Positions 13,593 through 25,578 of a stretch of 38,207 nucleotides of DNA are shown here, one piece after another. Position numbers and translations under genes: made by a program. Where the stretch lies: the UHGV virus genome UHGV-0368255; one strand, 5' to 3'. The first letter of the stretch is position 1, and every line of letters begins with the position of its first letter. This DNA is from a virus. The notes below the pieces were generated by a model. The model saw only the letters and a list, made by a program, of their open reading frames with translations. It made no database searches and was not told the origin of the DNA.

Positions 13593-13799
13593 TATCTTCA
13601 CTCCTTTCTTGTAACGATTTAAAAATAATCAAAACTCTGCTATTACATTCGTTTCAGATCCTAACGCCAAACTAATTTTTCAATAATTTGATCGCTTACC
13701 TGTTGCTCCTTGCTACTACCAATAGCCTGGAGCAATTTTTTACTTCTTCTGGCGTTGCTTCTATTGTGATTTCATATGTTTACCTCCTCAATTTTTTGT

Positions 13800-14060
13800 A
13801 AGCTAATAAAATTAGCTAATTTTATTGACACTTTCTACAAAGTTTTGTAGAATAAGTGCAGAGTTAAATAAGCGCAGAATTACCCTATAAATTAAAATTC
13901 TAAGTTTCCCGACCTCGAATTTGTTTATTTTATTAGGTGTCTTTCTTATTGCTTGTTAGCTTATTAAATTAGCTTACGAACATATATTATTATAAAGTTT
14001 TGTAGATGTCAACAGTTATCTACAAAGTTTTTTAGATGTGTTTTAGGCATGATTGGAGAA
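13800..14060. promoter_or_regulatory. genetic switch region: divergent promoters plus two families of operator palindromes
   Basis: Rightward TTGACA(13825..13830)-17-TAGAAT(13848..13853). Leftward TTGACA (complement of 14007..14012). Family A operators: CTACAAAGTTTTGTAG (13835..13850) and the AAAGTTTTGTAGAT / ATCTACAAAGTTTT pair (13995..14031). Family B: AGCTAAT-AAA-ATTAGCTAAT (13801..13820) and TTAGCTTATTAAATTAGCTTAC (13956..13977). Confidence 0.6.
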
Positions 14061-14068
14061 TCGTTATT

Positions 14069-14416
14069 ATGACAACATTTGAGAGAGTAAAAATGTTAGC
14101 AGATAAACACAAAATATCTATTGTCGAATTGGAGGAAAAACTTAATTTCAGTAAAAATTCACTTTATGCGTGGAAGAAAAGTAAGCCATCCATTGATAAA
14201 CTAAATGCAGTTGCTGACTATTTTAATGTCTCAACTGATTATTTGTTAGGTCGTACAGATGATCCTAACGCAGGAGTTGCACCAGAGGAAAGAAAACTAA
14301 CCGTGGAAGAAGCTTTAGCATCTGTTATGAGCAGCGACGGAAAACCACTCACCGATAATGATAGGGAAATACTATCAGCTATGATTGAAGCATATTTAGA
14401 GAAAAAAGATAATTAA
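14069..14416 (+). CDS. XRE-family HTH repressor (ImmR/CI-like)
   Basis: HTH at the N-terminus (ERVKMLADKHKISIVELEEKLNFSKNSLYAWKK). Followed directly by an ImmA-type protease. GGAG RBS before the ATG at 14069. Confidence 0.75.
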   Translation: MTTFERVKMLADKHKISIVELEEKLNFSKNSLYAWKKSKPSIDKLNAVADYFNVSTDYLLGRTDDPNAGVAPEERKLTVEEALASVMSSDGKPLTDNDREILSAMIEAYLEKKDN

Positions 14417-14424
14417 ATAAGTAG

Positions 14425-14847
14425 GTGAGTCATTTGGACAGTCAAATTGAAATGATAATTAATGAACTCGGCGTTAAGGTAGAAGAGCGTGAAAACCTTG
14501 ATGCCGATGGCCATTATGTTGCTTATATGAATACCATAGTAATAAAAGCTAATTTATCTAAGTATAGAAGACAAAGAACCTTATTACATGAATTAGGACA
14601 CGCTTCTAAACATCATGATAATTATTTTTTATATAACTTAGCATTCTCTCTCCATTCAAAAATGGAATATGAGGCTGATCGCTTCATGATTGAAAAATTA
14701 TTAGATAGATATATTGCAAAGTCTGAATTAGAACCACACAATATCAATTACATGAAATTTATAGAAGATAATAATTTAAGCGTTCGCTTCGAACCACTTG
14801 TGAAAGAATTATTAAAAGCTCGCATCTATTGTTATGCAGCTCTCTAA
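14425..14847 (+). CDS. ImmA/IrrE-family zinc metalloprotease (anti-repressor protease)
   Basis: HELGH motif. Typical genetic pairing with the XRE repressor. Confidence 0.75.
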   Translation: MSHLDSQIEMIINELGVKVEERENLDADGHYVAYMNTIVIKANLSKYRRQRTLLHELGHASKHHDNYFLYNLAFSLHSKMEYEADRFMIEKLLDRYIAKSELEPHNINYMKFIEDNNLSVRFEPLVKELLKARIYCYAAL

Positions 14848-14899
14848 AATTTTTTAAGCAAAAAAGAACATATGTTCAAAAATAGAAAGGTGAACAAAA

Positions 14900-15211
14900 A
14901 TGATATATACAGAATTCAAAGAATGGTTAGAAAAAAACACAACCGGATACGAAACATTTATCATCAAAGCTACTAATTATCAAATTGAAAAAAACAAAAA
15001 TAGACCCCCAAAAAAACGCTGGGATGATAAGAAAATAGATAAAGCTGTATTAGAAATGTGGAAACAAGTCGTGACTAACTTGTATCAAACAATTCGTAAA
15101 GAAAAAGGAGTTCCATTAATTAACGGGAAGGAAATATGGCTTGAATTTATAGAGGAACAAGGACTGATCGAATTTTTCAATGATAGCATGGCAGAATTAG
15201 AATTTGAATAG
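14900..15211 (+). CDS. hypothetical protein
   Basis: 103 aa ORF between immA and int. Confidence 0.45.
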   Translation: MIYTEFKEWLEKNTTGYETFIIKATNYQIEKNKNRPPKKRWDDKKIDKAVLEMWKQVVTNLYQTIRKEKGVPLINGKEIWLEFIEEQGLIEFFNDSMAELEFE

Positions 15212-15222
15212 GGGTAATATTG

Positions 15223-16371
15223 ATGGCAATGATAAAACAATATAAAAAGAAAAATGGCGAAAAAGCATGGTACTTTAAAACTTATCTCGGTATTGATCCG
15301 CTAACAGGAAAGAAAAAATATACTACTAAAAGAGGATTTAGAACACAAAAAGAAGCAAAAACAGCACTTTCTAGGTTAGAACTAGAATTACAAAAAACAG
15401 GAATGCCCACAAGTACAAATACTACTTTCAAAGAAGCAGCAGAATTATGGCTAGAAAGCTATAAAAAAACTGTAAAAGAAAGTTCATATTCAAGGACTAA
15501 AATAATCTTTAACAAACATATATATCCCAAATTTGGAAATATTAAGCTTTCTAAAATTAATACGGCATATTGTCAAAAGGTAGTAAATGATTGGAGTGAA
15601 AAAGGAACTTCAAAGCAGTACCCTCTTTTCATAAACTATATGAACAAAGTTTTTAAGTATGCTATAAATATTGGTTTAACATCTGATAATCCAACATTAA
15701 ATTTACTTATTCCAAAGCCACAAATTAAAACAGAAAAGAAATTAAAATTATATACAAAAGAACAGTTGGAATTATTTCTAAATGAAGTATCTCAAGAACA
15801 GAATCCATATTTTAAAAACAGAGACTATACGCTCTTTAGACTATTAGCATTCAGCGGATGTAGAATCGGCGAAATATTAGCACTCACTTGGGACAATATT
15901 AATTTTAAAACAAATGAAATGGCCATTAAAAAAACTGTAGCTCGTTCAGATAAATATTATATATCTGAAACTCCTAAAACAAAAAAATCAAATCGAATAA
16001 TTTATTTAGATGAAAAAACTATAAAGCAACTAAAATTTTGGAAGCTCGAACAAAGAAAGTACTTATTTCAATTAGGATTTACTAAAGCTAATTATTTGTT
16101 TACCAATGACGAAAATAATTTCACAATTAATCAGTCAGTGGCAGAAAGATACAATATATATCGTGAGCGTGCCGGCTTACCTTATATCGGTCTGCATGGT
16201 TTTAGACATACACATGCATCAATGCTATATGAGGCAGGCGCAGATCACAAAGAAGTCCAAGAAAGAATGGGCCACGCAAATATAAAAACTACTATGGACA
16301 CATATACACACATTACTAACAGCAAAAAAGAAGAAACAACACAAAAACTAACAAATTATATTAACTTCTAA
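15223..16371 (+). CDS. int: tyrosine site-specific integrase
   Basis: C-terminal catalytic residues R...HGFRHTHAS...Y. N-terminal arm-binding (AP2-like) region. The track start at 15220 is a TTG. The ATG at 15223 follows AGGGG. Confidence 0.85.
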   Translation: MAMIKQYKKKNGEKAWYFKTYLGIDPLTGKKKYTTKRGFRTQKEAKTALSRLELELQKTGMPTSTNTTFKEAAELWLESYKKTVKESSYSRTKIIFNKHIYPKFGNIKLSKINTAYCQKVVNDWSEKGTSKQYPLFINYMNKVFKYAINIGLTSDNPTLNLLIPKPQIKTEKKLKLYTKEQLELFLNEVSQEQNPYFKNRDYTLFRLLAFSGCRIGEILALTWDNINFKTNEMAIKKTVARSDKYYISETPKTKKSNRIIYLDEKTIKQLKFWKLEQRKYLFQLGFTKANYLFTNDENNFTINQSVAERYNIYRERAGLPYIGLHGFRHTHASMLYEAGADHKEVQERMGHANIKTTMDTYTHITNSKKEETTQKLTNYINF

Positions 16372-16372
16372 G

Positions 16373-16623
16373 AAAGTATGGTCAAAAGTATGGTCAAAAA
16401 AATCCCTTACTTAGCAAAAAAAGCTCCATCCCTTGCCACACAAGAGATAGAGCAGTTTATTTATTAAGCTTCTTGAGCTACTGGATAAACAGACACTTCA
16501 AATATACCTTTTTCTGGTATATTCTGAACAATGCTGGCAGCTTGAGATCACTAGATTTCTAATATTATCTATAATGTGCAATTTCCTATTATTTCTCAAA
16601 AGTATGGTCAAAGTATGGTCATT
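16373..16623. repeat. two identical tandem pairs of the decamer AGTATGGTCA flanking a ~200-bp non-coding core immediately downstream of int
   Basis: AAGTATGGTCAAAAGTATGGTCA (16373..16396) and AAGTATGGTCAAAGTATGGTCA (16600..16623), same orientation. Confidence 0.5.
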
Positions 16624-16709
16624 TTTTATGTCAAATTTTCATAACTTCTTTTATATAATATTTTCCTCTGATATGATAAGAATGTGAATATTATATAGAA
16701 GGAAGGTTC

Positions 16710-17354
16710 ATGTATATGGGGTTATTCGGTAACAAAGAAAAAAAACTAGCTAAGAAAAAAGAAAAAGAAATAAAGAAGGCTGAACAAGCAAAAATTTTTA
16801 ACTATTTTAAAGATAATAGTAACTTGATCATTGAAGATTTCTACTTTGATGATATCCATAAAAAAGCTTTTATAAAGAAGTCTATATTAAAAAATAGAGA
16901 GCAGTGTGTATTCAACTATAATGACTTAATCAGTTATACACCGATTTTTGAAGGATCAAAAATAAAAAAACATCATGGAATAACTAGAGCAGTTGTTGGT
17001 GGTGTACTAGCAGGTCCTATTGGAGCTTTAGTTGGCGCCGGTACTGGTGGCAAAGAATTTGAATCTGTAAAACAATTAGGTGTTATGGTTCATCTTGCTG
17101 ATAACTCATCAGTTAAATATTTAATCATTAACAGCGAAACTAAACTAGATTCTATTGTAGGAAGAGCCTCTATGGATATATATAATAAACTTGTTGCGAA
17201 ATTAGAATGGATAGTAAAAGAAAAAGAAGGAGTTCCGACTAACACCTCAGAAAGTCAAGCAGATGAAATAAGAAAATATAAAGAACTATTGGATGATGGA
17301 ATCATTACAGAAGAAGAATTTAATAAAAAGAAACAAGAATTATTAGAAATATAA
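16710..17354 (+). CDS. SHOCT-domain protein with a central glycine-zipper segment
   Basis: GGVLAGPIGALVGAGTGG (GxxxG x3). C-terminal EIRKYKELLDDGIITEEEFNKKKQELL is a SHOCT motif. Lysine-rich N-terminus. Confidence 0.55.
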   Translation: MYMGLFGNKEKKLAKKKEKEIKKAEQAKIFNYFKDNSNLIIEDFYFDDIHKKAFIKKSILKNREQCVFNYNDLISYTPIFEGSKIKKHHGITRAVVGGVLAGPIGALVGAGTGGKEFESVKQLGVMVHLADNSSVKYLIINSETKLDSIVGRASMDIYNKLVAKLEWIVKEKEGVPTNTSESQADEIRKYKELLDDGIITEEEFNKKKQELLEI

Positions 17355-17446
17355 TATCAATCAAAAAGATGAGCATTTAATTTAGCTCATCTTTTTCTAT
17401 TTACAATGCAAACATTTGTTCGTATACTCTTTTTGAGGTGAACATT

Positions 17447-17749
17447 ATGTTGATGGAAGGAAAAACACAATTATGGTTTAAATTTGACCCTTCGAATAGA
17501 TTTATCAAAGATTTTTATAAAGTATGGGATTCAGAAGTTTTCTTTTTAGCAATCGAAGATAGCTTATTAATTAATCTCTACTATTCTAATAAGAACTACT
17601 TTAAAATCCCTGCTGCAAAAACTAGAATGAAGAAAGACGTATACTTTTTGTTTGATGTGGTGACTGACGTGCCAGACGCACGAAGCGATCATCGGCGTTA
17701 TGACTATATAAAGTATACTTTCGTTGATCCAGAAAGGTATAAAGATTAA
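17447..17749 (+). CDS. hypothetical protein, second gene of the cassette downstream of int
   Basis: GAGGTGA RBS before the ATG at 17447. Followed by the GGCTACC-taaaaa-GGTAGCC hairpin (17756..17775). Confidence 0.45.
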   Translation: MLMEGKTQLWFKFDPSNRFIKDFYKVWDSEVFFLAIEDSLLINLYYSNKNYFKIPAAKTRMKKDVYFLFDVVTDVPDARSDHRRYDYIKYTFVDPERYKD

Positions 17750-17979
17750 AGTAGGCTACCTAAAAAGGTAGCCCGGAACGGATTTTATCACCATACTTAT
17801 GAAAGGAGATATTTTTAAGTTAGTATTAAGATTGTGTAATATGATGATATCTATATTTTATAGTATCAGTGCTATAAAATCAAAAATAAGTCACTAATTA
17901 ACTATCACTCCAATTATAAGTCTTTTTCCCATTATTTTTTACAGTTATATGGTATGCTTTTTAATGGCTTCAAATATAA

Positions 17980-18043
17980 AAGAGTTTAAAGCGTAACACA
18001 CTTATTGGGGAGTGGTTTTTGGGGAACGCTTTAAACTCTTCTT
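17980..18043. repeat. 15-bp perfect inverted repeat (AAGAGTTTAAAGCGT / ACGCTTTAAACTCTT) with a 34-nt loop containing TTGGGGA x2
   Basis: Read directly from the sequence. Lies in the 825-bp non-coding attP region. Confidence 0.5.
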
Positions 18044-18162
18044 TATTATTATCTCACAATATAACCCAAATGTCTTTCTATTTAAAAATCAAAGTAAAAC
18101 TTTTCAAATATACAGAAGTATAACTATGTGAAACATCCTTTCATTAATCCATAAAAGGATAC

Positions 18163-18188
18163 ATAAAAAAGCCACTCATTTGAGTGGC
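18163..18188 (-). terminator. intrinsic terminator on the minus strand downstream of the tRNA fragment
   Basis: GCCACTCA-tt-TGAGTGGC hairpin with an A6 run on the + strand, which is U6 after the hairpin on the minus strand. Confidence 0.55.
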
Positions 18189-18264
18189 AATGAAGAAAAG
18201 CTTTAGCTTGTATAATACTCTTCAGAAAATTCTAACACAGAACGATTCAAATGGCTACATTAAT

Positions 18265-18324
18265 GTACCCTGTAGGACTCGAACCTACGACCGGACGGTT
18301 ATGAGCCGTCTGCTCTGACCAACT
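18265..18324 (-). tRNA. truncated tRNA: the D-loop-to-3'-end portion (~60 nt) of a CAU-anticodon tRNA (Met/Ile2-type), with no 5' acceptor or D-stem; probable attP core
   Basis: Minus-strand sequence AGTTGGTCAGAGCA-GACGG-CTCATAA-CCGTC-CGGTC-GTAGG-TTCGAGT-CCTAC-AGGGTAC-A shows the anticodon stem-loop, T-arm with GTTCGAGTC, and a 3' acceptor strand. The 5' acceptor strand and D-stem are missing. Confidence 0.6.
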
Positions 18325-18378
18325 GTTAATCAGTGTTCCAAAGGGAGTGATTATACTCTGCTATTTTCAAACTTTCTT

Positions 18379-18557
18379 AAATCGTCTATGATAATCTCAG
18401 TTTATGGTGGCAAAATGGTGGCAAGAAAAAAAGTGAGCATGCTCGTTATTTACGGAATCGCAGCACCGCTCGGTCATTTATTCGGAAACAAGCTACTCTT
18501 GAAGATTTGGAAGAATTAGAACAATTGATTGAAGAACGTAAAAAATCCCTCGGCTAG
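18379..18557 (+). pseudogene. start-less 3' remnant of an ORF (...HARYLRNRSTARSFIRKQATLEDLEELEQLIEERKKSLG*)
   Basis: Open frame of about 58 codons with no ATG, GTG or TTG start. It ends at a terminator hairpin. Confidence 0.3.
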
Positions 18558-18576
18558 AAGAAACGAGGGATTTTTT
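18541..18576. terminator. bidirectional intrinsic terminator (AAATCCCTCG...CGAGGGATTT flanked by A- and T-runs)
   Basis: Perfect 10-bp stem. T-run after it on the + strand and A-run before it. Lies 3' of the minus-strand defence operon. Confidence 0.6.
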
Positions 18577-19168
18577 ACATAGTTCTATGTTCTTGTGCGT
18601 ATTTAATCAAATATTCAATCATCTCGTCCATATTGGTATGCTTACAACATCTACAATCCTCTAAAAATTGTTTAATTGCATCAATATCTTGCTCCCCTCT
18701 ATTTTTTGGAAAAACTTCTAGATACTTTGCTACTTTTTTATTTGACTTAGTTTCATAAGGATATTTCATTTTCTGTAAGACGTTCTCTAAGTTATTCTCA
18801 TTATATATAGGAATAATCTCCTTTTTTAACCAATGAGAAGAAAAAGCTTGTCTATTTTTGTATTCCATAATAACTTTATTTGTAGCATCATCCAAGTCCA
18901 TTATTGGAAAAATTTTTAAATTCTGCGGATATTTTTTTTTCATTTCTATAGTATCATAGTAATTTTGAAAACCAGTATAATTTTTTAATTTTGCATTGTT
19001 TAAAAATCTTTCCAGTGATTTTCCAACTTGAATACTATTACTTCCATTCTTTTCTGACTCAATAATTATTGGAATCTTTAGGGAGCTCTTTAAATAATCA
19101 GCAATCATTTTTTCACTTTTCCCATGGCAAATAATAATAGCAGGAGGTCTTAATATATTATTCTTCAT
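18575..19168 (-). CDS. small partner protein of the ATPase (197 aa) with an E...DxD arrangement reminiscent of TOPRIM/RloB/DUF4276-type nuclease partners
   Basis: IIICHGKSE near the N-terminus and IFPIMDLDD at about residue 90. C-terminal CRCC..H cluster. The start overlaps the ATPase stop by 11 nt, so the genes are translationally coupled. Confidence 0.5.
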   Translation of the reverse strand: MKNNILRPPAIIICHGKSEKMIADYLKSSLKIPIIIESEKNGSNSIQVGKSLERFLNNAKLKNYTGFQNYYDTIEMKKKYPQNLKIFPIMDLDDATNKVIMEYKNRQAFSSHWLKKEIIPIYNENNLENVLQKMKYPYETKSNKKVAKYLEVFPKNRGEQDIDAIKQFLEDCRCCKHTNMDEMIEYLIKYAQEHRTM

Positions 19169-20510
19169 AATTTAATTCCTCGGCCATATCTTCAAAGTCT
19201 AAATCTCGTGGGTATGGAGTACCTCCAAAAGCACCATTTAAATACATTTTTGCTGGATTATTATTTGAGTCTATTTTGTATTTATCAAGTGAATCAATTG
19301 TTTTATTGCCTAATGCATCAGACTTTATGATATACATAGATTTTTTTGGCAGTTGTTCCATTAAATATGTGTCATGAGTAGTAAAAATAATTTGTCCATT
19401 AATAGACTCTATAATATTTTGTACAAGATTGTTCACCAGCAAATCATGAATACCCTCATCTATTTCATCAATAATAACCGTCTTGCCCATTGCAGCATCT
19501 ATTATTAAAGGAAGAAGATTCAGCAGTTTTTTAGTTCCTTTAGATTCTAGTTCAAATGGTATTTCAATAATTTTTGAGTCTATTGTCTTATAGCACATAA
19601 GTTCATAACTTATAGAATCGTCTTTTTCTGCTATTATATATTTCATATCTTTTATATCTGAATACAAAGATACAAAGTATTTACTAACTAATTTTTCTGT
19701 TTCCAAAATTTTATTTTTTTCTTCTTTAGCAATATGTCCTTTAATTAAATCTTCAAGTATTTTGTTTTGTTTGTAGGCCTCACTATAAAACATATCATTA
19801 TCAGAAACTGATAATGTGCCAAAATAATTTAATATTAACATTAGATTGTCAGAAAGATTATTAACAATAAAATTTTCATTAAGTTGTTTAGTATAATTTG
19901 CAATGATAGCTAAGAAAGAATGTTTCCCCCAAAGCTTTTCTATTTGCTCTAAAAAAGCATTGTTCAAATTGGAATTTTTAAACACACTCGGACTGAGATT
20001 GATATTAATTTTATTTTCAAATTTGTTTACTTTAAAAAATTGGCGTTTTCGTTTATCTACTAAATAGCTTAAACGTTCCATTACTAGCTCACTTTTATCG
20101 TTAAATTCTAAATCATAAACTCCTGAGTGTCCATTTAGAATAAATTCATATGATAAACTCATATTTTTTTCTTTTGAATTAATTGTTTTGCAATTTTTTA
20201 CTATATTTGTTAAAGAAGAATATTTATTTCCAAAAAATATTGTATCTATGTGATATTTATTAAGAGCAAATTCCTTTTCCTCGTTAAGCTCCATCATATT
20301 TCGTACTTCATTGTACTTATCCAACTTATTTAATGTATCAGTTGATAATACAAGGATTGAAAATAGATGGATAATATTGCTTTTTCCGGAACCATTTTCT
20401 CCGTAAATACTAATTACATTTTTAGCCACTTTTTTTTGTTTATTTTTATTAAAATCAATAGATAATTTAGGGAAATTCTTATAATTCTGCACTTTCACTT
20501 TACTAAACAT
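19158..20510 (-). CDS. ABC-type (AAA_15/AAA_21, SMC/RecF-like) ATPase, upstream gene of a two-gene candidate abortive-infection/defence cassette
   Basis: Walker A GENGSGKSN near the N-terminus. Walker B VIIDEIDEGIHD and H-loop FTTHD near the C-terminus. AAGGAGGG RBS before the ATG at 20510 (the track extends to 20546). Own TTGACA-16-TATTTA promoter. Confidence 0.65.
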   Translation of the reverse strand: MFSKVKVQNYKNFPKLSIDFNKNKQKKVAKNVISIYGENGSGKSNIIHLFSILVLSTDTLNKLDKYNEVRNMMELNEEKEFALNKYHIDTIFFGNKYSSLTNIVKNCKTINSKEKNMSLSYEFILNGHSGVYDLEFNDKSELVMERLSYLVDKRKRQFFKVNKFENKININLSPSVFKNSNLNNAFLEQIEKLWGKHSFLAIIANYTKQLNENFIVNNLSDNLMLILNYFGTLSVSDNDMFYSEAYKQNKILEDLIKGHIAKEEKNKILETEKLVSKYFVSLYSDIKDMKYIIAEKDDSISYELMCYKTIDSKIIEIPFELESKGTKKLLNLLPLIIDAAMGKTVIIDEIDEGIHDLLVNNLVQNIIESINGQIIFTTHDTYLMEQLPKKSMYIIKSDALGNKTIDSLDKYKIDSNNNPAKMYLNGAFGGTPYPRDLDFEDMAEELNYEE

Positions 20511-20721
20511 TTTAATTCCCTCCTTTAAGTATAATTTATCATACATTATGTCTTAATTAAATAGAATAAGCTTATTATTTGTCAATTTATTTTTATGTAC
20601 TGCCCCTCTGAATGTTCTGAGAGATTTTTTTATCGTTTTGGAATGTATATGCACCACCATATATGAAATTTTTAAGACTCCTTCTAGTTATTATGATAAT
20701 ATTTTACTTGGAGGTGAAATT

Positions 20722-21300
20722 ATGAAAGTAACAGGAGATGGATTATTAGGGTTGCTAGGATCCATCGTTGGAGTAATTGGTGCATACATCTTGGCTGTTT
20801 GGCAAAATAAAAGTGAGGCTAGAAATAAAATGATACTGGAACTGAATACAATCGAAGAAAGAGCTAATACAGTATTAAATTATACCTATGCAACCAACGA
20901 AAATTTAAACGTTGAATTATTTCCAATGCAAATAGAATTGACGCATCCTATGTTTGATTCTGTGGAGAAGATGAAGCGTATTTATCCTTTATTGAATCAA
21001 AAGATTTTACGCCTGATTGAGAGGCTCAATGTTCAAGTTCAGCAGTTTGAAATGACTTTAAACGGAGTGGTATTAGACCATCACAATAATCTTTTACCTC
21101 CTTCATATCACAACGATGATCCAAAATCTTATGTGTTAGTTCAAAGTTATATTTTTGGTAATCAACAAAAAGTAGTAGATGAATATAATGAACTAATAAA
21201 GAGGGTAAAACAAATAAAAAGATCCATTAACATTCCACTATACTTATTTTTTATTAGCAAATTTTCTTGGTACAAAGAGCCTCCTACTTTACATCTTTAA
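20722..21300 (+). CDS. membrane-anchored hypothetical protein, divergent from the ATPase operon
   Basis: GGAGGTGA RBS before the ATG at 20722. N-terminal TM helix LLGLLGSIVGVIGAYILAVW. Confidence 0.5.
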   Translation: MKVTGDGLLGLLGSIVGVIGAYILAVWQNKSEARNKMILELNTIEERANTVLNYTYATNENLNVELFPMQIELTHPMFDSVEKMKRIYPLLNQKILRLIERLNVQVQQFEMTLNGVVLDHHNNLLPPSYHNDDPKSYVLVQSYIFGNQQKVVDEYNELIKRVKQIKRSINIPLYLFFISKFSWYKEPPTLHL

Positions 21301-21338
21301 AAAAAAAGCCCATTTTTCAGATTATATGGGCTTTTTTA
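21300..21338. terminator. bidirectional terminator between the convergent membrane-protein gene and the endolysin
   Basis: A7-GCCCATAT...ATATGGGC-T6. Confidence 0.6.
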
Positions 21339-21360
21339 TATTTAAATACAATCCTAGTTT

Positions 21361-22335
21361 TTATAATATTAAATAAATATCAGAAATCCGCACATCGTTC
21401 ACTGAGCCTTCACCGTTTGACTGATTACATCGGCGCAAAATAATATCAATCTTCTTCCCTTTCATCCAACTAGAATCAAAAGTAACATCAAAACCTAGCG
21501 CATCGCCACCTTGATATCCGTATGCCTTTTTGACGTCTGGACGAGCAATCCCTTGAGATTGGATACGTGTTAATTCTTTAGGTGTCCCGTGTTCCATTAC
21601 CAGTACGTAAGCATAAGTTCCAATTGCACCTTGTGGTTTATCAGGAACCAACCAACCAGCTACACGAACTGTTTTATCTGTTACCTCTTTGAAAATATCT
21701 AGCTTGCCATAAGCATTTCCCTGATGCGTTGGCGTACTTGCTGATACTTTATCATCATGATTCTGATCTTCTGTACTGCCATCAGGTTTCAATGCGGGAT
21801 TATCATAGTATTTCTTGATTTGTGAAATAAAGTAATCTTGCATTTGAACAGTGATTGCTGCAGGAACTGCTAACGTAGAATCATAGCCACAATGTTCCAT
21901 CAGTGAACGCTTAGGACATTCAGTTGCTGAAAATTGATGATGGCATTTGACTGTGTTTCGGTTAACTGGCAATCCGTAAAAACGAAGATCCTCCGCTGCT
22001 TGCCAGAAAGCATTTTGTTCCGCTTGTAGGAAAACTGCTTTTGGTGTTTCCCGATTTCCACGCACTTCATATCCGATATAGCTATTATTACCATCAGAGT
22101 TAGCGACATGCCAAGCACGATTGTAAGTATCTTCTGTCCGAATAATCGTGTTTTCATCACAGTAATAATGAGCAAATCCTGCTTCTAACTGTTTATCGGT
22201 CATTCCTGCCAACCGATTCATTTCTTGTTCTGCAGTCGTGTTTGTCCAAGTATTATGGATGACTACACCCTTCACATCTCCTACACGTCTACCTGCTACA
22301 CCACGACATACTGAATTATTGATAATATTGACCAT
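21361..22335 (-). CDS. endolysin: N-acetylmuramoyl-L-alanine amidase (Amidase_2/PGRP) with a C-terminal cell-wall-binding region
   Basis: Lies after the holin. GGAGG RBS. N-terminal VIHNTW...HYY...zinc-amidase-like motifs. Confidence 0.7.
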   Translation of the reverse strand: MVNIINNSVCRGVAGRRVGDVKGVVIHNTWTNTTAEQEMNRLAGMTDKQLEAGFAHYYCDENTIIRTEDTYNRAWHVANSDGNNSYIGYEVRGNRETPKAVFLQAEQNAFWQAAEDLRFYGLPVNRNTVKCHHQFSATECPKRSLMEHCGYDSTLAVPAAITVQMQDYFISQIKKYYDNPALKPDGSTEDQNHDDKVSASTPTHQGNAYGKLDIFKEVTDKTVRVAGWLVPDKPQGAIGTYAYVLVMEHGTPKELTRIQSQGIARPDVKKAYGYQGGDALGFDVTFDSSWMKGKKIDIILRRCNQSNGEGSVNDVRISDIYLIL

Positions 22336-22748
22336 TATTGTTTTCCTCCTAAAGTATTATTTTTGTCTTTTCCTTGTTCTTCAGATGAATCTTTTAATTT
22401 GCTGAATCGATCTTTCACAAAATCTGGAATCGGGATTCCTAGCTGACCTAAATTCTCGATCACCGAGATTCCATAAACAGCAATGTATGAAAGCACAAAA
22501 GCTGTTGCGACTCCTTCAAAGTTCATGATTTTAAGATAGGGATACGCAATCAGCACAAGCGCCACGACCAGCAAATGCTTTACTACCCCCATTAGTCCCT
22601 TAGTACTATTTGTTTCTTTTCCAGCAAGTCCTTTACAAACTCCTGTAATGATATCTGCAATGACAATCCAAACAAAAATTTGAATATAAACATTGCTTAC
22701 TAGATTTTTAAACTCTGATAACAAAACTAAATTATCAATGATCACCAT
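22335..22748 (-). CDS. holin
   Basis: Three or four predicted TM helices and a charged C-terminus. Lies immediately upstream of the endolysin. The ATG at 22748 follows GAAGGGTGG. The track start at 22763 is a GTG. Confidence 0.65.
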   Translation of the reverse strand: MVIIDNLVLLSEFKNLVSNVYIQIFVWIVIADIITGVCKGLAGKETNSTKGLMGVVKHLLVVALVLIAYPYLKIMNFEGVATAFVLSYIAVYGISVIENLGQLGIPIPDFVKDRFSKLKDSSEEQGKDKNNTLGGKQ

Positions 22749-22780
22749 GTTTCCACCCTTCACTTTCTATTTTTGGCCAT

Positions 22781-22808
22781 ACAAAAAGCGCACTCGTTTG
22801 AGTACGCC
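22781..22808 (-). terminator. intrinsic terminator between the tail genes and the lysis cassette
   Basis: GCGUACUC-aaac-GAGUGCGC followed by UUUUU on the minus strand. Confidence 0.5.
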
Positions 22809-22809
22809 T

Positions 22810-22938
22810 CTATTCTTCGCTATTAATAATCTCATCCGCTTCTTCTTCCGTAATACATAATGGAACAAATTCACGAACCTGTCCTTCTGTAAAACAGCCC
22901 CAGTCAAACATCATTTTCACATCGCTAAAACTAAACAT
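22810..22938 (-). CDS. XkdX-like small protein (42 aa; MFSFSDVKMMFDWGCFTEGQVREFVPLCITEEEADEIINSEE)
   Basis: GGAGGTGAG RBS. Typical position between the tail fibre gene and the holin. Under 60 aa, so absent from the track. Confidence 0.5.
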   Translation of the reverse strand: MFSFSDVKMMFDWGCFTEGQVREFVPLCITEEEADEIINSEE

Positions 22939-22939
22939 A

Positions 22940-23395
22940 CTACTCACCTCCTTCTGATTCTGGATTTAATTGCGCTTTAATTTCTGCAATATCCTTGCTG
23001 TTTTGAAGCGAAGCAAGCATTGTCTTTGAATTGATTTGTGCTAAACTATCAGCTTTTTCTTTCAATGCAGTATTTTCCTGTTTAATTGCTACATCGTTTA
23101 GCATGAGTTTGGCATTTAGCTGTTTTAGGTTGTCGTTTTCATGTTCCAGAGCCTCATACATCGCTTTGAGATTGTTTAAATCGTTGTGATCTAGTGCGTT
23201 CGCTAACACAATCCATTGGTTCAGTTTAGGATCAAACATCTGATCAGCGATTGTTAACGGTTCGCCATCAGCACGTACCCCTTCAAGTGGTGGCTGATCT
23301 GTGTAAGGAACGGATACAAGCATGTCGTCCAATACTTTTCCTGCATACTCTCCGCCAGTACGTCCGTATTTCCAAATGTTTTTCATTCGTTTCAC
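22940..23395 (-). CDS. tail-fibre-associated hypothetical protein with a coiled coil
   Basis: 151 aa. C-terminal heptad repeats. Confidence 0.4.
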   Translation of the reverse strand: MKRMKNIWKYGRTGGEYAGKVLDDMLVSVPYTDQPPLEGVRADGEPLTIADQMFDPKLNQWIVLANALDHNDLNNLKAMYEALEHENDNLKQLNAKLMLNDVAIKQENTALKEKADSLAQINSKTMLASLQNSKDIAEIKAQLNPESEGGE

Positions 23396-23397
23396 TC

Positions 23398-25578
23398 CTA
23401 GTCTATATAGTATTGAATTGGCGCTAAAAACAAGTTGACTGTTCCCCTAAATGAAGGTAGACCGCAAACGCCGTTCGGTCGGATATAAGCCATCCCGCCA
23501 TTGTCTAAAGTATTGCTACTTTGTGGTGGTAACAAGAATTGATACTCATAATTATCAGTTGGATTACTTGGTCTAAATCCTTCTGGAATCGTACAAAAAT
23601 CTTGTGTACTTAGCGTGCTACCTTTTAATGATCCACGGAACATTACTAGTTTTCCAATTCTCCTGATTTGTCCCTGTTTGTTCCAGGAGTGGCCGTTGAT
23701 CGCTGTTAGATTTACCCATCCAGTATCTTCTGGAACTGTAGCAACTTCTTTACCTGCAATCTGTAACCCATCCTCAAAGTTTTTTAAACCTTCAACTGAC
23801 TGTGGTTCGGTCAAACTAACCGTATTATTCAAGCTTTTTTCAGTATATTCAGGTGTGATATCCCAACTGTAATCATTCGGATTGTTGCTGTCTTTCAATC
23901 CTTCACCGAAGTATTTAAACTGACTAATATTAGGGGTTCTGGTGTCTCCTTTTTCAATCTTGAGCCAGTCTATTTTTACAGTACCTTTTGTTTCACTTGG
24001 AAACTGATATACAGCTAGAGTTCGTAGTGCGCCTGCGTCTATGCTAGCCTGTGTTACTGTGAACTCTCCTTGCCATGTATCTGTTAATCCTTCAACTGGA
24101 TACAAATCAGCAGCTTTAATTGTACCGCCGTTTAGATATGCTATAAATCGCTGAGTTGCTGGCTTGGTTGCTTTCATAGTTAACACATATTTCTGGTTAA
24201 CTTTGTAGTCTTCTACATTGGCTTTTGAATAAACAGAGTATTCAGTTGTAGTAATAGGAAACTGAACATCTTTGTTTGCGATATTCTCACCCAAAGGCGC
24301 TTTACCTAGCCAGTAAGGGTCATCTAGTAAGTTAGGTTGATATGGGGTGGCTGTAGAGCCACGTTCAACTTTAATATTTTCGATTAAAACCGTTCCGACA
24401 AATGGGTCTGTTGATGTTGTATTAATTGTGAAGTACATTCTATCGAACTTTGATGGATCTGTTGCAGTGCTAGAATTGGCTGTTATAGATATCCTAGTCT
24501 TCTGACCAACAATAGCTTCTTTACCTGTTAATGGTAATATAATTGTTCCGTTAGGACTTTTCCTATAACCTAACCTTAAATTTTCTAGTTTACCTGTGTA
24601 TCCCTCAGAAACGGTAACATCTGCACTTAATGTATATTGAGTATTTGGTAATAAAGCTGGAATATTTTTCATAGATTCTAAAAAAGCAGCCCCATCAGTT
24701 TTAGTGAAAGTTACTTTTAAGGCATTCCCAGCATCTTCCACAGTAACACCAGACTGCGTATAAAAATTACTAGCTTTTAACGGTATTATTAAATTCGGAT
24801 TCCCAGAATAATCATAGTCCCCGAAGTCGATGCTGTTACTGTACATCTTTTTCAGCTTGCCGAGGTCGCCGATTTGCTGATTGGTTTGATTCATCTTGTC
24901 TTCAACTGCTTTAAGATTGTTTTGTGCCGATGTAACGTTTTGAGAAACGGTATCAATCTTAGTTTGAGTAGCTTGTAGTTGCTCTGTTACCTCGTCAACA
25001 GTTTGATCAATTGCTTGTGTGGCTCCCTGTACAAATTCATTTATTTGTTGGTTTGCCTTTTCAATCGTAGAATCCACATTTGTTAATGCTGCGTTAACAG
25101 CATCTGTCGCCTCTTGTTTGACCCCATCAAGTAGTTGTTGAAAGTCCTTAAAATAATATTCTCCATTCAATTGAACATCGCCATCAATGATAGATTTCTC
25201 AATATTAAAAGTAAACGCCAAATTGTCCGTATGACTACCATCTGGAAAATCAATATAAACATTGGCATCAACTTTACCCTCGTAAGAAAGTAACATGTCA
25301 GGAATCCGGTATTTTACAATCCCTTGCATGTAGCTTTCAGTAATGATCTGATTATCAAAAATTGGGAACTCCTTTTTCTCTTTCCCTTGATAGATGTACA
25401 TAAAAAGACGAACAGTCGCATCGATTAAATCGGTCGGACTTCCGTCTTGATTTTCAATATTAAATTGTAAAACACCAGCATTTTTATCATAAGATTTAAA
25501 AGTAAAGCCTGTAATCTTGGTGGCACGACTAACTGGTTCTGTAGGTACGGTGATCTCACCAACTTTTCTGTCTGCCAA
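23398..25578 (-). CDS. tail fibre / receptor-binding protein (BppU-like N-terminus, central coiled coil, C-terminal beta-rich head)
   Basis: 726 aa. Long Q/N/T-rich coiled-coil segment at residues 150-240. Lies downstream of the baseplate genes. Confidence 0.55.
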   Translation of the reverse strand: MADRKVGEITVPTEPVSRATKITGFTFKSYDKNAGVLQFNIENQDGSPTDLIDATVRLFMYIYQGKEKKEFPIFDNQIITESYMQGIVKYRIPDMLLSYEGKVDANVYIDFPDGSHTDNLAFTFNIEKSIIDGDVQLNGEYYFKDFQQLLDGVKQEATDAVNAALTNVDSTIEKANQQINEFVQGATQAIDQTVDEVTEQLQATQTKIDTVSQNVTSAQNNLKAVEDKMNQTNQQIGDLGKLKKMYSNSIDFGDYDYSGNPNLIIPLKASNFYTQSGVTVEDAGNALKVTFTKTDGAAFLESMKNIPALLPNTQYTLSADVTVSEGYTGKLENLRLGYRKSPNGTIILPLTGKEAIVGQKTRISITANSSTATDPSKFDRMYFTINTTSTDPFVGTVLIENIKVERGSTATPYQPNLLDDPYWLGKAPLGENIANKDVQFPITTTEYSVYSKANVEDYKVNQKYVLTMKATKPATQRFIAYLNGGTIKAADLYPVEGLTDTWQGEFTVTQASIDAGALRTLAVYQFPSETKGTVKIDWLKIEKGDTRTPNISQFKYFGEGLKDSNNPNDYSWDITPEYTEKSLNNTVSLTEPQSVEGLKNFEDGLQIAGKEVATVPEDTGWVNLTAINGHSWNKQGQIRRIGKLVMFRGSLKGSTLSTQDFCTIPEGFRPSNPTDNYEYQFLLPPQSSNTLDNGGMAYIRPNGVCGLPSFRGTVNLFLAPIQYYID

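Follow-up and report, generated by a model that had tools for sequence, protein, structure and literature searches.

We analysed UHGV virus genome UHGV-0368255, a stretch of 38,207 nucleotides (nt) that is a temperate Enterococcus phage or prophage and is called the window below. It carries a two-gene cassette on the minus strand, in which the gene for an ATPase of the ATP-binding cassette (ABC) type is followed by the gene for a small protein, here called the partner. The cassette and its expression signals are laid out as follows, with protein lengths in amino acids (aa).

19158-20510, minus strand: gene for a 450-aa ABC-type (AAA_21) ATPase that resembles AbiLi and is predicted to act as sensor and to restrain the effector
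18575-19168, minus strand: gene for the partner, 197 aa, RloB/AbiLii-related and Toprim-like, with the signature HGxSE...MDxDD...NLE, predicted nuclease effector
20519-20525, minus strand: Shine-Dalgarno sequence AAGGAGG, 8 nt ahead of the ATG at 20510
20556-20585, minus strand: promoter-like region of the cassette, with the -35 element TTGACA at 20580-20585 and an imperfect -10 element inside TATTTAAT at 20556-20563
18536-18580: bidirectional intrinsic terminator overlapping the partner stop codon, with an A-tract before and a U-tract after the stem
21302-21337: bidirectional boundary terminator between the endolysin gene and an open reading frame (ORF) of 192 aa, with a 12-bp GC-containing stem flanked by A6 and U9

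The longest ATPase reading frame in the ORF list runs from 19158 to 20546 on the minus strand and would encode 462 aa if its first ATG were used. The true start is almost certainly the ATG at 20510, giving 450 aa, because the Shine-Dalgarno sequence precedes it, alignments of ATPase homologues begin at the methionine of the 450-aa form, and gene callers choose this start in E. faecium prophages. The ATPase and partner genes share 11 nt (ATGAAGAATAA), and GAGGA precedes the partner ATG. The ORFs, the start evidence and the shared nucleotides agree with the initial annotation of this DNA, made from its letters alone, which had described two overlapping minus-strand genes of 450 and 197 aa.

The same annotation had assigned the cassette its own sigma-A-like promoter, and this stood in part. 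The -35 element TTGACA is perfect, and the sequence offers two -10 elements, TATTTA with a 16-nt spacer or TTTAAT with an 18-nt spacer. Both are weak, and the site is absent from the list of a consensus scan, since TATTTA fits the consensus at three of six positions and the A that the scan requires at position 2 is missing from TTTAAT. The scan found no enrichment of promoter-like sites in the AT-rich stretch (31, against 23.7 +/- 5.4 expected from shuffles). On the other hand, the terminator at 21302-21337 shuts off the late/lysis operon and a divergent gene lies between, so the cassette needs a promoter of its own, and one at TTGACA is plausible. Downstream of the partner, the annotated bidirectional terminator was borne out: the hairpin at 18536-18580 has a folding energy of -25.9 kcal/mol (z = -8.0) that no shuffle out of 200 reached, and the A-tract before and U-tract after its stem allow it to work both ways. 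The terminator at 21302-21337 (AAAAAAGCCCAU...AUGGGCUUUUUUUUU; -15.1 kcal/mol, z = -2.5) is placed between the endolysin stop codon and the end of the convergent 192-aa ORF and shields the cassette from late transcription.

The ATPase contains Walker A (G37-E-N-G-S-G-K43-S-N), the signature E322-S-K-G-T326 (E322-S-x-G-T326 across the family), Walker B (V-I-I-D348-E349), the D-loop (IDEGIHD) and the H-loop (T-T-H379-D). These elements, of which Walker A, Walker B and the H-loop had been noted at the outset, are invariant among 37 homologues. Profile searches, proposed with the initial annotation, gave a Pfam AAA_21 (PF13304) score above gathering (69.5 bits, cut-off 27, E 6.8e-19). Among defence models in PADLOC, AbiLi came first (PDLC02335, 1.9e-45; PDLC02336, 1.2e-12), ahead of AriA, mad3, PtuA and HEC-01A, and in PHROGs the protein matched phrog_5836, of unknown function (6.6e-48). 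The single ATPase sequence returned nothing useful from the PDB. With the family profile, matches were obtained to retron Ec83/PtuA (4.5e-10 and 2.5e-7), to AriA (6e-4), and to SMC/Rad50 heads in the P-loop region only. Judged from its sequence, the protein belongs among the defence-associated AAA_21 ABC ATPases and is catalytically competent; it is not a Rad50/SbcC with a long coiled coil.

The partner was harder to place. For this protein, Pfam, NCBIfam, PHROGs and PADLOC returned noise only, and direct HMM (hidden Markov model) scans of three close homologues fared no better, in keeping with the initial view that the partner fits no named family clearly. A word-index homologue search found four relatives only and strongly understated the family. 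When a profile of those four was run against 1.84 billion representatives, 353 proteins were recovered at E <= 1e-3 and 241 at E <= 1e-10. The family thus comprises at least 353 cluster representatives at 50% identity, nearly all 185-210 aa long. Conservation was counted over 110 aligned members. The segments IIICHGKSE (H15, E19) and MDLDD (D91, D93, D94), which the initial annotation had put about 70 residues apart, are separated by 72 residues and hold the most conserved family positions: H15 in 108/110 members, G16 in 110/110, E19 and D91 in 109/110 each, and D93 in 103/110. The signature further includes S18, G42 (95/110), S45-I-Q47, M90, D94, P120-I-Y-N123 and N126-L-E/D128 (110/110), followed by K145, Y149, F153 and T178-N179 (110/110) in the C-terminal part.

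Existing models hardly see this family. No Pfam family consistently matched the 110 members, with PF13707 at 0/110; none matched PF14491 (DUF4435) or PADLOC AriB; and 17 of them matched PADLOC AbiLii weakly (best 5.8e-5). The window partner and six other partners gave no AbiLii or RloB match by HMM at E <= 1. A search of PDB sequences with the partner profile and a scan of genome collections with the single partner protein yielded nothing useful and nothing, respectively. A scan of genome collections with patterns from an 11-sequence alignment did succeed, the 110-sequence alignment being too diverse to yield such patterns. In curated sets, the family occurs in one of 50,697 phage records and two of 72,556 plasmids.

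Remote homology links the partner to RloB, and structure prediction hints at the Toprim nucleases. For comparison, a genuine RloB encoded beside an AbiLi-like ATPase on a Clostridium plasmid scored 1.1e-28 against PADLOC AbiLii, and an RloB/PF13707 alignment was built from its homologues. Using hhalign, the partner family aligned with RloB/PF13707 end to end, over 160 columns, with 88.1% probability (E 3e-6), while reversed, shuffled and unrelated controls gave at most 0.4%. In this alignment H15 is paired with the glutamate of the RloB CEG motif (invariant E30), E19 with that of TE, D91/D93 with D..D and E128 with the glutamate of NPCFE. Profile-to-sequence scores against RloB do not exceed 15 bits, and the link is one of superfamily and not of family membership.

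An AlphaFold2 model of the partner based on the 110-sequence alignment (mean predicted local distance difference test, pLDDT, 95.4; predicted template-modelling score, pTM, 0.91) shows a beta-alpha-beta-alpha-beta-alpha-beta core, after which the C-terminal part is helical. Foldseek ranked the C-terminal region of Xanthomonas OLD first, weakly (E 0.014, template-modelling score 0.33), and the nearest structural neighbours of the model appear to be the OLD/AriB/GajA Toprim nucleases. An earlier model from four sequences (pLDDT 72) gave the same top matches, more weakly. The resemblance to RloB/AbiLii-type Toprim proteins proposed initially was thus recovered by profile comparison and is suggested by the predicted fold. 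Lactococcal AbiLii was likewise reported to superpose best on the OLD C-terminal region, 6NJV (PMC13064643), the PDB entry that is also the top Foldseek match of the partner; for lactococcal AriB/DUF4435, the reported HHpred match is PH0156 (PMC11381338).

From the RloB alignment and residue spacing, the putative active-site positions were mapped onto AriB (residues from PMC11464382) and Bp OLD (residues from PMC6755086).

Partner H15: AriB E26, Bp OLD E400
Partner E19: AriB D30, Bp OLD E404
Partner D91: AriB D88, Bp OLD D455
Partner D93: AriB E90, Bp OLD D457
Partner E128: AriB E122, Bp OLD E508

Of these five positions, the partner retains an acidic residue at four (E19, D91, D93 and E128), and by homology H15, E19, D91, D93 and E128 would cluster in space. 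The initial annotation had pointed to E19 as the N-terminal glutamate of a TOPRIM-like arrangement; the map corrects this, since E19 is the second acidic residue and the canonical position is occupied by H15. Of the other Toprim elements, with strands taken from the model, the glycine after beta-2 (G42, 95/110) and the DxD that ends beta-3 (D91, 109/110; D93, 103/110) are present.

The ATPase and partner travel together. In all 21 partner loci with upstream DNA, the gene immediately ahead of the partner, in the same orientation, encodes an ATPase homologue (30-47% identity), and the two are separate genes in every case, with junctions that are mostly overlaps or short gaps. The 21 loci come from Streptococcus, Enterococcus, Latilactobacillus, Oenococcus phage phi9805, Clostridia, Erysipelotrichaceae, Veillonellaceae and a Methanomassiliicoccales metagenome-assembled genome (MAG). 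Clustering of all flanking ORFs revealed no third conserved gene. The module adjoins terminase genes in L. sakei and Oenococcus prophages and occurs on conjugative E. faecalis plasmids beside a recombinase; an integrase, a YoeB/Phd pair and a type I S subunit were also seen as neighbours. In five of seven IMG/VR contigs it lies no more than about 1.5 kb from the contig end.

Some individual copies differ. The ATPase of a Streptococcus MAG (L013) is in two fragments, a decayed copy, and the partner of Oenococcus phage phi9805 (L009) is annotated with 149 aa, the match ending at query residue 150. Two loci (L018 and L025) contain a second ATPase homologue or fragment near the module, which suggests duplication or tandem systems. 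The copy in the gut archaeon (L024, the Methanomassiliicoccales MAG) suggests inter-domain transfer.

Within the window, the cassette lies in an accessory slot of the phage, for which the following genes serve as landmarks.

15220-16371: integrase
21361-22335: amidase endolysin
22335-22763: holin

Repressor and ImmA-like genes are also encoded. The slot is bounded by the endolysin gene and the prophage end, with terminators on both sides of the cassette. Integrated E. faecium prophages show the order tail, holin, amidase, (an ORF of 192-230 aa on the opposite strand), ATPase, partner, DUF5960 gene and host DNA, so that only one phage unit separates the cassette from host DNA and the prophage end is about 1 kb away. 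In Enterococcus phage vB_ElaS_B1578, one of the relatives of the window phage, the same slot holds an intact tRNA-Met gene, a hypothetical gene, a SecB-like chaperone gene and another hypothetical gene. Homology between the two phages stops at about 18325, within a tRNA-Met remnant of the window, and because the tRNA-Met of B1578 is intact and accompanied by other cargo, the exchange appears to have occurred by recombination inside the tRNA gene. The remnant itself (18266-18336, minus strand) scores 27.8 bits against the Rfam tRNA model, just below the gathering score of 29, and is not found by ARAGORN. By megablast, the cassette DNA had no match among the 50,697 phage records, and its GC content is 27-28%, compared to 36-43% in the structural genes. 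Varied cargo, the end of homology in the tRNA remnant, the lack of cassette matches in phage records and the low GC content together indicate a swappable slot, in agreement with the accessory position near the prophage end that had been read from the letters.

Among known systems, AbiL of Lactococcus lactis and RloAB of Campylobacter are the most similar, in a comparison made through PADLOC models and the RloB/PF13707 alignment and not the original AbiL sequences. All share a two-gene operon with the ATPase followed by a small partner on a mobile element, the ATPase fits PADLOC AbiLi, and the partner-family profile aligns with RloB/PF13707 with matching acidic motifs. However, the partner falls below every RloB/AbiLii HMM threshold and is not AbiL by current models, HGxSE and PIYNxxNLE replace the invariant CEG..TE and SNPCFELW of RloB, and the window ATPase shares only about 26% identity with an ATPase linked to RloB. 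In contrast to PARIS, there is no DUF4435/AriB match, AriB (35 kDa) exceeds the partner in length by about 100 residues, and the partner has a histidine where AriB has E26, a residue whose change to alanine inactivates PARIS. Membership of PARIS was therefore rejected on the partner, and membership of MADS on the score of the MAD3 ATPase model (31 bits, against an NCBIfam equivalog cut-off of 420). In OLD proteins (P2 Old, class 1 Ts, class 2 Bp/Xcc) and GajA the two domains are fused, whereas in the window they are split into two ORFs; the canonical glutamate of those proteins is a histidine in the partner, and a GajB-like helicase is absent. By profile, the ATPases of Septu PtuA and retron Ec83-Ec78 are the closest solved relatives of the window ATPase (4.5e-10 to 1e-6), but the partners in PtuA-type systems are HNH nucleases (PtuB) and not Toprim-like.

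A further candidate relative is the NetFlax pair AAA(D29):TOPRIM_OLD(D60) of Streptococcus agalactiae 2603V/R (WP_000491711.1 / WP_000010056.1), a two-gene pair of the Lactobacillales that was compared by description only. The D60 cluster is separate from the RloB cluster D44, the D60 toxin is neutralised by its ATPase in E. coli, and phage defence was not reported for the pair (PMC10440598). The S. agalactiae pair may be of the same family as the window cassette, in which case toxicity and neutralisation are already shown and the novelty is lower. The initial suggestion that the pair is undescribed may thus hold only in part, as a probably related Streptococcus pair has already been characterised as toxin and ATPase antitoxin (PMC10440598).

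The observed gene structure, ATPase motifs and family, remote homology and predicted fold of the partner, two-gene synteny and mobile context are consistent with a prophage-borne defence or toxin-ATPase module of the split ABC ATPase plus Toprim class (AbiL, RloAB, PARIS), and we consider that the cassette probably is one. To our knowledge, a mechanism of such split systems has been worked out only for PARIS, in which AriA hexamers sequester AriB and release it in an ATP-dependent manner upon trigger binding, after which AriB cuts tRNA-Lys (PMC11464382; PMC12409363). P2 Old is a tRNase activated when its inhibitory oligomer is lost (bioRxiv 10.64898/2026.07.10.737580), and AAA-ATPase/TOPRIM_OLD pairs from Clostridium and Streptococcus behave as antitoxin and toxin in E. 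coli (PMC10440598).

Complex formation, trigger, substrate and defence phenotype are modelled here on these systems. In a lysogen, the operon would be transcribed from its own promoter, and translational coupling would keep the 450-aa ATPase and its 197-aa partner at matched levels. An ATPase oligomer would bind the partner and hold it inactive until, in an ATP-dependent step, the ATPase senses a cue from a superinfecting phage (a phage protein or DNA structure) and the partner is released or activated. The partner would then act as a metal-dependent nuclease, with H15, E19, D91, D93 and E128 as its site, and cut a nucleic acid that the infected cell needs. Anticodon stem-loops of tRNA would be the favoured target, with DNA as the alternative; by analogy with AriB and P2 Old, a tRNA substrate seems an attractive, if tentative, assignment. 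Cleavage would halt phage growth and the infected cell would be sacrificed.

Several points weigh against this interpretation. The promoter is consensus-like only, the choice of substrate is pure analogy, and the partner fails all direct HMM tests for RloB, AbiLii, DUF4435, DUF4276 and Toprim, with profile-to-sequence scores against RloB of at most 15 bits. More serious is the active site. A Toprim domain is defined by an invariant glutamate after beta-1 (Aravind et al. 1998, as summarised in PMC6755086), and this residue, in the loop after beta-1, is histidine in 108 of 110 family members and glutamate in none, i.e., the partner fails one of the three defining Toprim motifs. In AriB, the E26A mutation at the position equivalent to H15 abolishes PARIS defence (PMC11464382). 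With the glutamate missing and AriB E26A inactive, the chemistry of the partner may differ, or it may not be a nuclease at all.

Other functions can be considered for the same two genes. The cassette could be a toxin-antitoxin (TA) addiction module, with the partner as toxin and the ATPase as antitoxin, which would mainly stabilise a prophage or plasmid through post-segregational killing and not act against phages. NetFlax validated AAA(D29)/TOPRIM_OLD antitoxin/toxin pairs in E. coli and included one AAA-paired system without defence (PMC10440598). In line with addiction, the module is found on conjugative plasmids and beside the YoeB/Phd TA pair, and a related phage carries SecB-chaperone TA-like cargo in the same slot. 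However, TA activity and abortive infection are compatible, PARIS being both (PMC11464382), an ATPase of 450 aa whose catalytic motifs are invariant would be a costly antitoxin if no sensing were needed, and phage moron slots and the proximity to restriction-modification (R-M) genes fit defence. We regard a mainly addictive role as unlikely.

An OLD/Gabija-like complex that itself binds the ends of invading DNA or replication intermediates and nicks or degrades them, without abortive infection, or a helper of R-M systems as proposed for RloAB, is somewhat less likely still. Class 1 and 2 OLD and GajA, the apparent structural neighbours of the partner, do cleave DNA in vitro (PMC6755086), RloB genes occur within type I R-M operons (PMC10440598), and a gene for a type I S subunit adjoins one locus of the family. 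Against this, the two effectors of split or stand-alone OLD type that have been examined in vivo, AriB and P2 Old, are both tRNases; no R-M genes lie near the cassette in the window, and a GajB-like helicase partner is not conserved across loci. A housekeeping function in the phage's own cycle, as SbcC/Rad50-like recombination or repair protein or partitioning ATPase, which the initial annotation had named as the outcome that would speak against defence, was rejected as highly improbable: the weak SMC_N, Rad50 and RecF N-terminal matches of the ATPase span the P-loop region only and lie under curated cut-offs, there is no long coiled-coil insertion and no Mre11/SbcD-type or centromere-binding partner, the cassette is absent from the most closely related phage, and a partner homologue occurs in only one of 50,697 phage records and the module also outside phages.

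With a split defence or toxin-ATPase module as the preferred reading, the cassette is best called an RloB-superfamily system, in which a His-variant Toprim partner has co-diverged with its own AbiLi-like ATPase clade. It is conceivable, though we would not expect it, that the HGxSE family constitutes a distinct, unnamed branch of ABC-ATPase/Toprim immunity that evolves separately, chiefly among Firmicutes of the gut and mouth and their phages, is missed by PADLOC, Pfam and PHROGs, and uses the invariant histidine in the role of the universal Toprim glutamate. If so, the exchange of glutamate for histidine could alter the preferred metal or the chemistry of catalysis, and perhaps also the substrate, as compared to AriB, Old and RloB. 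Because the exchange at a Toprim-defining residue is family-wide and AriB is inactivated by E26A, the family offers a natural test of how much change a Toprim active site tolerates. The whole partner family is unseen by standard annotation libraries even though the ATPase is flagged as AbiLi, and defence-system censuses would therefore count these loci as orphan ATPases. E. faecium is a target of phage therapy, and a prophage-borne exclusion module could account for strain-specific phage resistance in this species.

The slot also holds an ORF that is divergent from the cassette (20638-21300, plus strand), with a likely start at ATG 20722. Its product of 192-220 aa matches no family and is predicted to have a single membrane helix. 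The ORF accompanies the cassette in E. faecium prophages and is not conserved with the module elsewhere. It was rejected as a third component, as only two genes are conserved across loci and the ORF goes with the cassette in E. faecium only; it may be a separate moron, e.g., a superinfection-exclusion gene.

In the integrated prophages (L026-L029), the phage genes end with the DUF5960 gene (17438-17749), which is followed by strain-variable host DNA, and the SHOCT-domain gene (16710-17354) is not adjacent in these prophages, so the phage attachment site attP probably lies between about 17354 and 17438. The tRNA-Met remnant was rejected as attP, the phage/host junction being beyond the DUF5960 gene in integrated prophages. 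Finally, record PQ554527.1 ('Acinetobacter phage D2SVT') is about 95% identical to the window backbone at 13768-25000, with coverage equal to that of vB_ElaS_B1578; its host label looks wrong, or the record looks like a contaminant.

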